Of a stretch of DNA of 47,935 bases, positions 3,601 to 9,600 are shown in pieces. The stretch lies in contig JALJEE010002819.1 of NCBI GenBank assembly GCA_023231475.1, positions 1 through 47,935 of the forward strand, written 5' to 3'. Source of the DNA: Seison nebaliae. Taxonomy: Eukaryota. Below the pieces are notes generated by a model. The model did no database searches. It was given only the letters and a program-made list of their open reading frames with translations, and was not told the DNA's origin. A program made the position numbers and the translations under genes. Position 1 is the stretch's first letter. Each line of letters starts with the position of its first letter.

Positions 3601-6600
3601 TCGTAGACCAATGGCTATACGTAATCTTGCCGCTATTTTAGCTTGAAGTCGTAATCGAGCCTCAACCATACGTTCTTGCATTTCACCGTATACAGCGTCC
3701 ATTGTTCCTTGCATACCACCCATATGAGTCACATCACAGACAGCTTTATGTTTATAATCCTTATTAGGTTTATTCTTTAAGAAGCCAGCTTTCTGATCAA
3801 CAGCCTTTTGTACAACATTAGATCGCTACAGAAGTTAATACGGAAATTTAAGATCAAATGAAATATAAGAATATAAACTGCAGCAGCCAATTGGTTTTTA
3901 TTTCTAGTCGCTTTTCGCTGTTGAGTTACTACATTTTGTTGTTGTTTCGCATGTTGGGTAGCTTGATATACTGTTGCTTTATCCCCAACTTTCGGTGGAA
4001 TAATAATTTGCGGAATTTCAGGCCTTGGAGTCGTTGTTGGAGCTTTCTTGATACCTAAGATTTTATTGACACCTTGAGAAATAAAATTCTTTACATCGTT
4101 AATCGCTTTCTTTATATCTTCCCCAGCTTTCTTTAAATGTGAGACAAAGCCTTTGATAATATTATCAAGAACGGGAGAACGATTTCGTGGAGTCCACCAT
4201 TTTCCGAAATTCGGTTTTAACCAATTTCCTTTACGTTTCTTCAAAAAATATTTCATGTTTTTCGCATATTTTTCACGATTTCCTTTTCGGATACCAAACA
4301 GACTGAAAAATCCTTTAACAATAATTCCTATTGTTCTTGGTATAAATGATACAATTTCATGAAGAACACGTGGAATCATATGTATGACGAAACCGATAGG
4401 ATTCTTTGGAAATTTCGATAGCCACCCACCAACTGCGCATTGAGGAGCATTGGGAGAACTGGGTAAAGAAGCCAAACTTTGTAATTCTTTCGTTAAGGCT
4501 TGAATTTCTGTATCGGCGTCAATAATAGCATCAATGTCTAATTCGGCTTGTAGATCAACATCAATATCCACATCTAATTTGACATTTACTCCCATTTTAC
4601 CGTTATGCTTCCCAACACTGAACTTTGTAGAAACTTTCGCATCGGCTGTTAAATCGACGTTCGCCATAGCATCTACTTTCGCGCCGACATGTCCGCCAAC
4701 TTCCGTATCACCAATCTTTGTACTACCACCAGCACCTACTCCAACGGCACCAGCAGCACCAACGTTAGCATTTCCACCAACATTTGCTCCACCAGCCACA
4801 AAGGCATTACCGTGCTCATCTATTCCCGTAGCAACTCCAGCACCTGCTTTAGCATTAGCTGCAGCTGCTGCTGCTGCATTAACATTGGCGTCCACATTTG
4901 CGGTTACTTTTGGACCATTTTCTCCCAATTGGAAAGCAGTTCCCACCGTGCCACCAACATTAGCTTGTCCTTGGGTAGCAGCACCACCATTTACTTGAGT
5001 TCGTGCACCAACAGCCCCTCCTTCACGGAATACTTCCGCATTTGCTCCAGCGGCAGCCGAACCTCTAGCAGCAACATCAGCAGCCGTCGCTACTCCAACT
5101 TCAAGTTTAGCTCCTGCAACATCTAAACCAGCAACAGCTTCACCTTTAGCACCAACTGCTGCATTAACATCAGCTCCTTTCTTAATTTCGGCTCCTATTG
5201 CTTCACCATTCTCAGTCTTTTTGGCATATGCTCCAATCTGTTCTTGATATTTAGCGTTAGCTACGCCATCGGCAGCTACCGCAGCGCCGACCGTTGCACT
5301 TACATCTCCAATGCTCGCTCCTACTCCAGCTTTGGCGTCGGCAGCAGCTACACCACCAACACCTACGGTTCCTTTAACGCCAGTGTACATACCATTCTCA
5401 TCTATTTGCGTAAATGCTTGTGCATTAGCATCTCCCTGTAATGCTGCTGCAGCATCAGCTTGAGCTTTTGCATCTGCCCCAATTTGTGTTTTCAAAGGAC
5501 CTACTCCAATTTCTCCTGTACCTGATACTTGGGCTTCAGCTCCTACGTCTGCGTTAGCATCTGCTCCAACATTTGCTCCAACTCCATAAACTCCATTACC
5601 ATGCATTACCTGTGAACCGACCTGAGCATTGACATCGGCACCGACTGTAGCCGCTGCTAGGGCTGCAGCATCTATATCAGCATCAGCTCTTATTCCAAAT
5701 AATTCCACTCCTGCATTTACTCCAGCATCAGCTGCTGCCGCTGCTCCTCCTCCTGCATTAAGTCCAGCATTGATTTGAGCTGCTGTTAGACCGTTGGTGT
5801 TAGTAACTTTACCACCTCCTGTGGCACCAGCATTTACCGTTGCCATTCCATCAGCACTAGCACCTGCACCTGCATCTATTTGTGCTCTCAATGGACCTAC
5901 TCCTACTTGTCCGACACCTGCGACTTGAGCATCAGCTCCCACATTTGCTGTGCCATCAGCTCCAACATTTGATTGAACTCCATATTGTCCATTACCATGC
6001 ATTACTTGTGTACCTCCATTAACGTTAACACCAGCACCTACTGTGGCCGCCGCTTCGGCTGCAGCATCTACATCAGCACCAGCTCTTATTCCAAATAAGT
6101 CTACTCCTGCACCTACTCCAGCATCAGCTCCTGCTGCAGCTCCTCCTCCTAAATTAATTCCAGTATGTCCGGAGGCTCTCGTTGAATCTTTATCACCGCT
6201 GATTTGACCACCTCCTGTTGCTCCACCAGTTATTGCTGCAGATCCATCAGCTGACGCTCCTGCTCCTGCCGAACCTCCAATACCGAATAACCCAGCACCA
6301 GCGGTGGCACCAACTTTGGCACCAGCATTGGCGCCTATTGTTTCTTGTACTGCTCCATTTGCTCCTCTTGAATGACCGCCTTGTCCATTTCTTCCCGAAT
6401 ATACTTGTCCTGCAGCATCAGTTTTACTAGACAATCCAAGACCTACTCCTGCATCTGCTCCTACTCCAATTAAACCATCCAGCCCAACACCAGCATCAGC
6501 TCCCAATCCGACTCCTGAACCGACTCCCACAGTACCAGCTCCCTGTGCGGCACTATATATACTTCCATCAGGACCCACTTGCGTAACTACATTTCCTTTC

Positions 6601-9600
6601 CCACCGGCATTTGCATTTCCATTTACACCTCCATTAACACCTAATTTTATGAGGTTGATGTCGCCACCTGGTGGATTCTTCTTTATCTGTCCATCAGGTG
6701 TATAATAATCATAAACTTTCGGTTCCTTAGGCACATAATTCAATACATCGCCTACCGTTGGTTTCTTACCGTTCTTTAGTGCCTCATATTGTTTAGCCAT
6801 TTCTTCCGTCATTGGATCATCTGCAGGAATTACTTCCAAATCATCTTGTTCATTATTCTGTGGAAGAGGACGCTTTTCTCCATTACCCAAACCATAAGGA
6901 TCGAATCCTCCTTCACTCTTCGAGGCTTCTGCGATTTTCTTCGGTATATCTGCATCATCAAAATCACTTGTACTCTTATCAGGCATCTTACCACCTGTAG
7001 CTTTCTCTTCTGCCGCCAATTCCTCCAAATACTTTTTATGTTCATCATTTCGATTCCTTTCTCTTTCAGATGGAGTATCGAGAGGTTTATCTGAAGATTT
7101 CCTTAGGCATGCATATTTTATCGCTAAAATTTCCGTTCCACTTGTACAATTAGATGTCGTTTTTTGAACAGTAATTTCACAAGTTTGTTGATTTTGACCA
7201 CATCTACATAATTAGAGAAAGATAGATATAATGCTTAAACTGTTCAAAATTAAACTTGTTCTTTATTTCATTGAAAGCATTCGGATTCCAACATGGAAAC
7301 TTATCTTCAGTAGAATCCTCCGAAGTTCCATAGGGGCAGACGGAAAAGAATGCACGGGATGTTGGTCTTCCATGGAACGCTCCAAAAATAGCAATTTTCC
7401 CGTTATGTGGACATTTCATTACAAGTTTCCTTCCACTACAAACTGGTCCAGTAACACTAAACGGTTCGTCATGACTCATTACCAGCGTTGCATATTTTCG
7501 AACTTTCTCTTTATGTGGAAGGTCAACGGACATAAAACTGTTGAAATCCAGAGGAGCCGTTTTTTCAGATGGTATAGACCCATGTACCATTTTACCGATA
7601 CGTTCTTCCACCATCTCATCTATAAATGTCATGTCAATAATCGATGAAATTCAAGAAAATCCAACTGCACATATCGAAAGGATTTCCGTTAAATCCATGA
7701 TTGCAGACACATGTGAAAATTCCATTGATATCTAAATCGCAATGGGCGTTAGGACCGCAACCTCCTAATCGTTTATCCTGTTCAATTTTTCCAGGTGCAA
7801 CACATTTTAATGTATATGTACATTTACTACTAAGAACTTCTTCGTTCAACTATTAATTAGAAGATATAATAAAATGTTTAATGAATAATAATGAATAAAC
7901 TTTCATTTGTCCAATATGTGCTTCATAACAACCACACTTTTCAGCTGGTACACATTCTCCCAAATGCATATAAAATCCATCTTTACAAATACACATCTCA
8001 TCAGCTTGTGCCCAGAAATCAATATCACATTTAATTCCTTCTTTATCAAAACATGTTTTGGGACAACCTTGCATAGCAGGTACATAAACCGCTTGTTTTG
8101 GACATTTGTAAGCTAGAAGGGTAAGCTATGATTGAGTATCAAATTGAAAATGTTAAAGTTAACGGCAAAAATGTTTCGATCTCCATGCCATAACAGCACC
8201 AGTTTCTTTTTGACATTCATCAGCTATCGCTTTAGCATGAGTACAAACCACTTTCTGTTGTTTCTCCAACGGACCTTCTCGATACAATGCCAATATATCT
8301 GCTTTACATTGGGAAATTTGTTCGGAAATTATTTCTGGTTTTTGCTTTTGACACAAAGAAAAATATGGTACAAGTTCGATGAAATCACACATTTCACTTA
8401 TCTCCTTCAATTCTTTAATCGTTGGTGATGGTGGTAAGAGTTTTGTCACGGACGATGGTAAGGCTGCTGTTCTTGAACAATCTTCATCAGTTCTAAATGG
8501 GAAATAAAATAAGATATTCTCTTAATCCTTCATTTAGATACTAACGATATACCACTATCATCATCGACTTGATAAGAATATCCACCAGCCCATTGTAAAG
8601 GATTTTCCATTTCTTTGAAAGATCCAGTAGCATCATAATGATCGTTCGTTTTATTTCCGTCGAAGTTTCCACAAAGACCAGTAACTTTTCCTCGATAAGT
8701 TCTCGGAATACTCACAAATCCGGTCCATGATTGATCATATCTCACTTTGTATCCACAACAGATATGACGGATAATAATATATTCACCTCTTCGGCTGAAC
8801 TCGAAATTTTGTTCCGTTAAATAACCTTCAACCGGTACTACTCTTTTTTCTCCATTTAACTAAAATAAAAGTTTTCCTTCAAAACATTCTCATAGACAAT
8901 TTGACTAACGTAAACGAAATGTCTGTCTATTCTGACATGATCTCGTCGATTTTTAATGTCGATCATAGCAAGAGAAGATCCGAAAATTCCCTCCATTTCT
9001 TCGAATTCAGATTCTAATGATTTTGTTTCAACAGTAAACCAACAAGCGTCATCTTCGTCCATCACTTTAACGGCCGTATATTTACATGTTCCTTGGAAAT
9101 GAATATATTCACGATCGAATGTTCGGAAATGTGGATCGCCAGATATACTACAAACTCCCATTGCTATTTCAGCTGCTTCTACGGCAGATACGACTGGTTT
9201 CATGAGACATGGATCCACAAAACTTTCGTGATGACCTGGTGCCTGATGTGGTAATTCACCTTGTTGTATAGCAATACGTTCATGTTGATCCAGACAAGTG
9301 AATTTCACAATAAAATCATGATAGAAATCACCACACGCATCACCGAACATTAAGTCGTTCACCAAAAATACACAATCTTGTTTGAATAAACAACTAGAAA
9401 TTGTTGAAATAGTTTCAAAATTTAATTAATAGGAAATTAAAAAACAACTAACAAATCTCTTAAATTTTTTCGTGCTTGCACATTCAAACAGGGAGGCACA
9501 ATTGATGTATCATAACCGTTGATGCATTTGGAATTGAGAGAATCTTCCGTCAATTTCCCATAAAATACACCGAATATATGAATCCATGTTTGTGGTGGGC

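Follow-up and report, generated by a model that had tools for sequence, protein, structure and literature searches.

A regular Ala/Gly/Val strand-turn domain in a secreted VWD protein of Seison nebaliae: a candidate silk-like cohesive block

The contig JALJEE010002819.1 of Seison nebaliae (NCBI GenBank assembly GCA_023231475.1, positions 1 to 47,935 of the forward strand; this whole stretch of 47,935 nucleotides (nt) is hereafter the window) encodes a large secreted protein with a central stretch rich in Ala, Gly, and Val. S. nebaliae is described as an epizoic rotifer attached to Nebalia (PMC8351084). In the central stretch, Ala and Val alternate with Gly, Asp, and Asn between regularly spaced turn motifs, and the phase of the alternation flips about every 33 residues. 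We favour, with reservations, the reading that the stretch is a lineage-specific orphan domain, predicted to form a silk-like, chain-folded antiparallel β-sheet and likely to be the cohesive block of a cement or glue. The protein is named in the database as hypothetical protein, partial, Seison nebaliae; it is called P0002 here. The gene and the domain are as follows.

675–11403, minus strand: whole gene of P0002, a secreted multidomain protein of 3178 amino acids (aa), from the self-match, the tblastn exon pieces, and the start Met
4509–6647, minus strand: Ala/Gly/Val domain, 713 residues, P0001 128–840, recognized by period-2 alternation that changes phase at intervals of about 33 residues

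Periodicity of the Ala/Gly/Val domain

The domain lies in an open reading frame (ORF) of the minus strand at 3777–7028 (3777–7211 from stop to stop). The translation of ORF 3777–7028, P0001, matched P0002 in a phmmer self-match (P0001 1–1051 = P0002 1265–2315), and residues are numbered below on P0001 unless P0002 is named. The domain contains 22.9% Ala, 21.9% Gly, 11.5% Val, 5.2% Thr, 3.2% Ser (Thr plus Ser 8.4%), and 0.6% Pro; it has no Cys, four Pro residues, and a net charge of −30.

An earlier note on this DNA had claimed that turn-like motifs of two alternating classes recur in order along positions 4510–6645 of the minus strand, which correspond to residues 128–839 of ORF 3777–7028. All 18 motifs were found in that order, at residues 247, 278, 311, 344, 377, 410, 443, 476, 509, 543, 573, 605, 637, 668, 702, 737, 772, and 807. 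They are 30–35 residues apart (successive spacings of 31, 33 seven times, 34, 30, 32, 32, 31, 34, 35, 35, and 35). Polar turns of the xxNG type alternate with hydrophobic turns (LFGI, VGPL, and IGDV or IGDT), so that in a meander the two classes would lie on opposite edges of the sheet. Pro had been described as essentially confined to the turns, and all four Pro residues do fall within turn motifs (GPDG, VGPL twice, and GENGP). The dipeptide Asn-Gly, a classic type I' hairpin turn, is present in 7 of the 10 polar turns, and these hold 7 of the 13 Asn-Gly pairs of the domain.

The same note proposed that small or polar residues alternate with Ala or Val between the turns, and Fourier analysis of an apolar/other indicator agreed with it. 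The highest peaks had periods of 2.07 (power 47.5) and 2.06 (power 21.8), against a top power at any frequency of 13.0 in 1000 shuffles. The frequency of the main peak equals 0.5 minus 1/66, as strict alternation with a phase flip every ~33 residues would give. There was no helical-period peak (period 3.2, power 5.6, under the shuffle maximum).

Autocorrelation with BLOSUM scores was positive at even lags from 2 to 14 (z up to 6.5). The favoured lags were then odd at 25–43, even at 56–72, odd at 93–101, and even at 124–134, the parity switching around 33, 66, 99, and 132; lags 64–66 were also positive (z 6.8 and 4.9). Two other fibrous designs were considered and ruled out: a collagen-like one by the negative autocorrelation at lag 3, and a coiled-coil silk by the lack of a 3.5–3.6 period and by 22% Gly.

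A sliding phase measure showed phased runs of 21–33 residues in 169–539 and 707–841. The sign of the phase switches at most boundaries; the few exceptions, where it stays the same, include the step from 707–733 to 750–769. The apolar face is composed of Ala (48%), Val (22%), Gly (11%), Ile (6%), and Leu (5%), and the opposite face of Gly (31%), Asp (15%), Asn (13%), Ala (8%), Thr (7%), Lys (6%), and Gln (6%). A mirror-symmetry scan for hairpin centres (43, with a shuffle mean of 37 and maximum of 51) was uninformative because any alternating run is mirror-symmetric.

Part of the domain is a tandem duplication:

5482–6232, minus strand: 1.9 tandem copies of a unit of 396 nt (132 aa) that comprises four strand-turn segments; in Tandem Repeats Finder, the period was 396, with 77% matches and a score of 922

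The two copies compared are alike at 70 of 132 residues (53% protein identity) and 255 of 396 bases, and the autocorrelation at lag 132 (z 10.9) reflects this duplication. The repeat alignment was built from five non-overlapping 132-aa units, of which the farther ones share 26–29% identity and keep the pattern.

Predicted structure

When a hairpin loop has an even number of residues, the index sum of paired residues is odd, and a common apolar face then needs a phase flip at each strand. Judged on the sequence, the flips at most boundaries support hairpins. AlphaFold, run without an alignment on residues 124–860, drew a single confident element, a hairpin at 792–827 with a predicted local distance difference test score (pLDDT) of 72–79 and a two-residue turn at N809-G810 (KHNG). 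A run on residues 311–442, with the five internal repeats as alignment, gave an all-β model in which two-residue turns were placed at low confidence at N346-G347 (HGNG), G378-P379 (VGPL), and N412-G413 (NTNG). All four of the turns proposed in the earlier note that lie inside drawn hairpins were reproduced, and every hairpin drawn in these models is antiparallel. A complex prediction with three copies of one 132-aa unit, in which the alignment was not used, gave a score of 0.00 and no verdict.

Homology searches

The Ala/Gly/Val domain had no relatives in the databases searched. HMMER with the ORF against 1.84 billion representative proteins returned the self-match P0002 only, and no Pfam family covers the domain. 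In the PDB, a sequence search gave one chance match (E 0.0099) to a mitochondrial complex I subunit, and a profile of the five repeat units gave no match. A word-based search with residues 1–1000 found no homologue. The top scores in the ESM Atlas, 0.85, belonged to unnamed bacterial and viral clusters and were under the meaningful level. No sequence relation to a known fibroin or spidroin family was found in Pfam, the 1.84 billion representatives, or the PDB.

The scaffold of P0002 does have relatives. Outside Seison, the nearest are a tortoise FCGBP-like protein (E 3.9e-184) and a scallop FCGBP-like protein with SUEL lectins (E 5.8e-147); farther ones are zonadhesin, VWF, and mucins.

Gene structure and scaffold

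The features of the gene around the domain are listed below.

3879–7203, minus strand: giant exon of 3325 nt that runs from the last part of a lectin-like domain, through the acidic linker and the Ala/Gly/Val domain, to the end of the basic tail; splice sites taken from the sequence
7254–7650, minus strand: upstream exon, with most of the second SUEL-lectin-like domain, spliced to the giant exon via a 50-nt intron (7204–7253)
3423–3825, minus strand: next exon, with a basic segment and then period-2 amphipathic stretches, leading into the third VWD; splice sites from the sequence and the P0002 peptide
7634–9425, minus strand: second VWD-C8-TIL-EGF module, in several exons; Pfam on exon translations
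2661–3390, minus strand: third VWD domain, with GDPH, directly downstream of the central region; Pfam VWD at 3250–3390 (E 7.5e-9) and 2661–3038 (E 8.6e-7)
6648–7028, minus strand: acidic, Pro-containing linker, P0001 1–127, net charge −11, between the lectin-like and Ala/Gly/Val domains
3879–4508, minus strand: basic tail, P0001 841–1050, after an acidic amphipathic strand

A tblastn search of P0002 on the window placed exon pieces from 10003 down to 675, and the start Met of P0002 falls within ORF 10831–11484. The giant exon has its acceptor at 7204/7203 (tatgtag, followed by exonic A) and its donor at 3879/3878 (exonic GCA, followed by gtttat). The P0002 peptide matches both of these junctions (NEIKNK-CGQNQQ and NQLAAA-RSNVVQ), and it agrees with all three junctions read from the sequence, namely this acceptor, this donor, and the exon 3825–3423.

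P0002 begins with an N-terminal hydrophobic leader (signal peptide), followed by two VWD-C8-TIL-EGF modules, each with a lectin-like domain after it. Next come the acidic linker and the Ala/Gly/Val domain, and after these the basic tail, the amphipathic exon, a third VWD-C8-TIL-EGF module, and a C-terminal part with Cys and Trp. In Pfam searches of P0002, VWD (PF00094) was found in three stretches (222 bits, cut-off 22.9), TIL also in three (38.7 bits, cut-off 24.5), and C8 over threshold in one (26.5 bits, cut-off 23.7). The second module was resolved into VWD at 8856–9425 (E 5e-10) and 8530–8859 (E 7e-11), C8 at 8159–8521, TIL at 7853–8125, and EGF_3 at 7634–7849. The GDPH motif is present in three copies, one per VWD domain, and by analogy these may self-cleave. 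The lectin-like domains of P0002 scored 15.6 bits, under the Pfam threshold, and exon 7254–7650 alone had no Pfam match; both equivalent domains of a paralogue, P0003, pass the SUEL_Lectin threshold (54.4 bits against 31.4).

P0003 is a Seison protein of 2446 aa encoded on another contig, and it has the same VWD-C8-TIL-EGF-SUEL scaffold. Identity is 39% between P0002 5–1238 and P0003 5–1256 and 31% between P0002 2439–3154 and P0003. The centre of P0003 is a segment of 447 residues with HAREETRR-type repeats, in which Lys plus Arg make up 22–46% of successive 50-residue windows; it has no Ala/Gly/Val domain and no alignment to the 1200-aa centre of P0002. Since the scaffold is shared and the centres are unlike, the sequences indicate that the centre is a hypervariable cassette and that the Ala/Gly/Val domain is specific to the P0002 gene. 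P0003 resembles the cohesive protein Mlig-ap1, which is likewise rich in Lys and Arg, and could pair by charge with the acidic Ala/Gly/Val domain.

The basic tail has a net charge of +27 with 37 Lys plus Arg (counted over 841–1051), and a C-x4-WL-x-KFP motif, matched by eye, is common to it and to P0003. The tail is flanked by two oppositely charged period-2 amphipathic regions. An acidic stretch of 23 letters (in 4509–4598, minus strand) lies at the end of the Ala/Gly/Val domain, and basic or mixed stretches of 20 and 28 letters (RFRFR..., LRFEFE...) lie in 3423–3825 (minus strand). Both flanking regions look like self-complementary β-strand peptides. At the C-terminus of P0002, residues ~2880–3178 (window ~675–2200, minus strand) have no Pfam match and contain three loosely repeated Cys/Trp segments (...FW..W....W..F...).

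DNA contigs of two runs from two studies cover positions 1–12000 without joints or differences, so the Ala/Gly/Val stretch is not an assembly artefact. The guanine-cytosine (GC) content of the region is 0.41–0.49, against ~30% for the window. Within the domain, it is 0.72, 0.55, and 0.19 at the first, second, and third codon positions (GC1, GC2, and GC3), and the codons for Ala, Gly, and Val have A or T in the third position, like those of the neighbouring gene. Since the high GC is confined to the first two positions, with a GC3 of 0.19, it stems from the amino-acid content of a native coding sequence. Horizontal transfer or foreign DNA is argued against by the same GC3 and the native A/T codon endings. 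Coding on the opposite strand was dropped as a candidate because only short ORFs occur there.

A search for a diverged copy at 80% likeness found only short, low-depth flank contigs and none over the Ala/Gly/Val domain. In run X2, flank contigs that are 81–83% identical and have ~3x depth align at 3503–3713, 4219–4503, and 6710–6914 (one was also found in run X1). Of 25 differences listed between a diverged contig and positions 3547–3676, 20 are spaced at multiples of three bases in a single register, a pattern to be expected of a second copy or lineage that is diverged yet constrained. S. nebaliae has been reported, in the available text of PMC8351084, to comprise two divergent lineages.

Evaluation of the fold and alternative explanations

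Several results weigh against the proposed sheet. The mean pLDDT was 36.8 for residues 124–860, with 627 of the 737 residues below 50, and 37.8 for residues 311–442. AlphaFold drew two helices at 573–633 (pLDDT ~50–62), and its model of 311–442 adds three mid-segment turns, which give strands of 8–16 residues and not ~30. Alternation and phase are weak in 553–700 and 737–771. In favour of the sheet, bulky residues lie nearer to turns than expected by chance (z −6.3) and Ala farther, in mid-segment (z +6.9), in a test that is partly circular because the turns were chosen partly from bulky residues. The ratio of nonsynonymous to synonymous substitution rates (dN/dS) between the 132-aa copies, 0.63, indicates weak constraint. 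Because its units arose by duplication, the exact-33 core is partly inherited, and the phase flips at its boundaries do not count as independent observations. Between differing units, the apolar/other class is kept modestly above chance (z 1.3–3.7, in an alignment that was itself optimized). With regard to function, an adhesive role of P0002 is proposed by analogy, and FCGBP-type proteins are also found in mucus.

The earlier note had proposed antiparallel strands of ~30 residues, to be checked with AlphaFold. The strand-turn pattern, the phase flips, and the two-residue turns at the KHNG, HGNG, VGPL, and NTNG motifs are supported, as is the predicted hairpin 792–827; the ~30-residue length is not reproduced, and the models as a whole are low in confidence. 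The cohesive core, silk-like or amyloid-like, that it had envisaged fits the context of a secreted VWD-C8-TIL scaffold.

The most serious alternative, unlikely in our judgement though it deserves real weight, is a low-complexity spacer that is intrinsically disordered. Comparable to the Pro/Thr/Ser (PTS) region of mucins but not glycosylated, it would simply keep the VWD assemblies apart or make up a hydrated gel, with a periodicity left over from repeated duplication of units. The low pLDDT, 22% Gly, the absence of homologues among the 1.84 billion representatives, a recent 132-aa duplication under weak constraint, and a centre that is hypervariable between the paralogues (1200 aa vs. 447 aa) all agree with such a spacer. 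However, the alternation (47.5 against 13) persists across units with 26–29% identity, and duplication alone does not maintain that. The near absence of Pro, the bulky residues near turns with Ala in mid-segment, the recurrent Asn-Gly at polar turns, and the predicted hairpin of the last unit also speak against it. If the domain were disordered, the finding would shrink to an odd low-complexity linker.

A second alternative accepts the chain-folded sheet and assigns it to another material: an envelope or cement of the eggs, the wall of a spermatophore, or a mucus scaffold of the gut or body surface, instead of a holdfast glue. The nearest named relatives, FCGBP-like proteins, zonadhesin, and mucins, act in mucus and gamete coats. 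Nothing specific stands against this assignment, which we consider rather improbable; the Lys/Arg-rich paralogue and the combination of VWD, lectin, and EGF domains resemble the cohesive proteins of temporary adhesives.

It is doubtful that the domain forms a parallel, in-register cross-β stack (a β-solenoid or covalent amyloid), in which each 66-residue unit would be a rung of two strands facing each other via their Ala/Val sides. The sequence is compatible with such a stack as well as with the antiparallel meander. An Ala/Val core between the two strands would hide the apolar face inside one molecule; the two alternating turn classes do define a 66-residue unit, and lags 64–66 are positive. 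However, sign changes of the phase at most boundaries and Asn-Gly at 7 of 10 polar turns fit two-residue hairpin loops, whereas the arches of a stack follow no parity rule. Every hairpin in the AlphaFold models is antiparallel, and we know of no solenoid with straight sides of ~28 residues.

The pore or tube suggested in the earlier note, a membrane-inserting β-barrel of amphipathic hairpins, would suit ~20 amphipathic strand-like segments with alternating turn classes, but it is very improbable: the apolar face has few large hydrophobic residues and is nearly half Ala, only 15 of the 713 residues are aromatic and the 13 inside the motif span lie nearer to turns than chance (z −3.2, from the same partly circular test) and form no girdle, a bilayer would require segments of only about half this length, no pore former was matched in Pfam or the PDB, and the domain sits between disulfide-rich extracellular VWD modules.

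Proposed mechanism

For the silk-like antiparallel sheet that we favour, the segments between the turn motifs would be β-strands that tight turns connect, and Asn-Gly would make a type I' turn of two residues. The polar turns would run along one edge of the sheet, and the hydrophobic turns bearing Phe, Leu, or Pro along the other. Two sheets, whether of one molecule or of two, could stack through their flat Ala/Val faces as in silk crystallites and leave the acidic faces exposed. The composition (Pro 0.6%, Gly 22%) would place the domain on what is reportedly the fibril-forming side of the threshold in the Pro/Gly rule. This rule is that of Rauscher et al. (2006), as cited in the available text of PMC5099703.

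By analogy, the scaffold is best read as an adhesive scaffold of the known FCGBP/Sfp1 type. Its VWD-C8-TIL assemblies would polymerize via disulfides, and cleavage at the three GDPH sites may be autocatalytic, as it reportedly is in Sfp1 and Sfp2. The acidic sheets could be bound or bridged electrostatically by the basic tail or by the P0003 centre with its many Lys and Arg residues.

A fuller version of this model is speculative, and we think it unlikely that all of its parts hold together. It describes a chain-folded β-lamella of ~20 strands of up to ~28 residues, ~10 x 10 nm in size, with an Ala/Val face and an acidic face, a hydrophobic edge and a polar edge, carried on a disulfide-polymerizing, self-cleaving VWD scaffold. 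The resulting cement, a hybrid of silk and mucin with a de novo origin in seisonid rotifers, would set as the sheets stack and as charges pair with those of Lys/Arg-rich partners.

The material would be a holdfast, egg, or similar cement of an epizoic animal. Seison attaches by a foot that bears pedal glands, and its eggs are glued to the host. Among the papers that our literature search covered, none dealt with adhesive proteins of Seison or of the pedal glands of rotifers.

Genomic context

The window is eukaryotic and intron-poor overall. Four of the other genes code, in very long frames without interruption, for proteins conserved in animals:

16898–23356, plus strand: RME-8/DNAJC13-like protein, 2152 aa
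36471–38927, minus strand: glycogen synthase, 818 aa
40022–43432, minus strand: copper ATPase, 1136 aa
12143–13774, minus strand: SH2 tyrosine phosphatase, 543 aa

Unlike these long-frame neighbours, the VWD gene has many introns of ~50 nt, with donors GTTTAA, GTTTAT, and GTAAAT. ORF 45289–46152 (plus strand) contains Gly/Tyr repeats (GGYIR, GGYL, GGYR), has a GC skew of +0.54 with several frames open, and may encode a Gly/Tyr-rich structural protein. At the start of the window (1–400), contig depth was 927 and 1892, against 14 and 27 elsewhere in the window, and many short contigs terminate at 139–193; this is a high-copy repeat at the contig end.

Comparison with known systems

Underwater adhesives and silks serve as models for materials. 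The known proteins of this kind rely on folded domains for interaction (VWD, lectin, EGF) or else on β-forming blocks of low complexity, and the P0002 gene joins both in one chain.

The closest parallels to the strand-turn design are the crystalline (GAGAGS)n region of the Bombyx mori fibroin heavy chain and the designed chain-folded [(AG)nEG] polypeptides, in which a two-residue alternation is combined with regular fold-back residues. As in these, one strand face of the P0002 domain carries Ala (here Ala/Val) and the other Gly (here Gly/Asp/Asn), Pro is almost absent, and bulkier or charged residues recur regularly at positions that allow the chain to reverse. Unlike fibroin, with which it has no sequence homology, the domain has a polar face that is acidic and varied and not pure Gly. 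Its fold period is also long and regular, at ~33 residues with two alternating turn classes, and it is one block within a cysteine-rich multidomain protein and not a dedicated fibroin. The secreted, cement-like cross-β silk of lacewing egg stalks has a period of ~16 residues, with strands of ~8 residues, and is Ser-rich; the P0002 domain shares with it a regular strand-turn period and small residues, but the sequences are unrelated. This silk is also named as a comparison in the available text on barnacle cement (PMC5099703).

Barnacle cement contains Gly/Ser-rich, silk-like proteins of low complexity (Gly/Ala/Ser/Thr) that are associated with nanofibrils and β-sheet, according to the parts of that paper available. 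As in P0002, blocks of small residues and low complexity alternate with complex charged blocks (PMC5099703). The barnacle proteins differ, as described there, in being small (families of 19–57 kDa), Ser-rich, and without a VWD scaffold, and their alternation is loose and does not obey the fibroin model, whereas that of P0002 is strict and phase-regular (PMC5099703).

The scaffold invites comparison with temporary adhesives. In the available text of the respective papers, VWD-C8-TIL, lectin, and EGF domains are combined in Mlig-ap1 of a flatworm, which also has Lys/Arg-rich regions (PMC6410801), and in Sfp1 and Sfp2 of a sea star, P-vulgata_3 of a limpet, and sea urchin relatives; auto-catalytic cleavage is described for Sfp1 and Sfp2 (PMC9382459). 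P0002 resembles Sfp1/Sfp2, Mlig-ap1, and P-vulgata_3 as a large secreted protein with VWD-C8-TIL, lectin-like, and EGF domains, and, like Sfp1/Sfp2, it carries the VWD self-cleavage motif, here three times. Strongly basic regions occur in Mlig-ap1, in the P0002 tail, and in the P0003 centre. The lectin of Mlig-ap1 is of the C-type, unlike the SUEL-like one of P0002. The likeness of P0002 to the Sfp1/Mlig-ap1 type is one of architecture as described in these papers. No temporary-adhesive protein with an Ala/Gly/Val strand-turn domain is reported in the available parts of PMC6410801 and PMC9382459, and a strict, phase-regular design within a VWD protein is not described in the parts available of these two and of the cement paper PMC5099703.

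P0002 shares repeated VWD-C8-TIL modules with FCGBP-like proteins, zonadhesin, and gel-forming mucins, and each of its VWD domains has a GDPH motif. Unlike that of gel-forming mucins, its centre is not a Pro/Thr/Ser domain (Pro 0.6%, Thr plus Ser 8.4%) but an orphan Ala/Gly/Val domain with a basic tail.

This unusually regular block, which has no relatives, would represent a compact design, made by nature, of a chain-folded sheet whose faces and edges are defined. It would also give the first molecular clue to the way in which Seison, which is related to the parasitic acanthocephalans, might attach itself or its eggs to the crustacean on which it lives.

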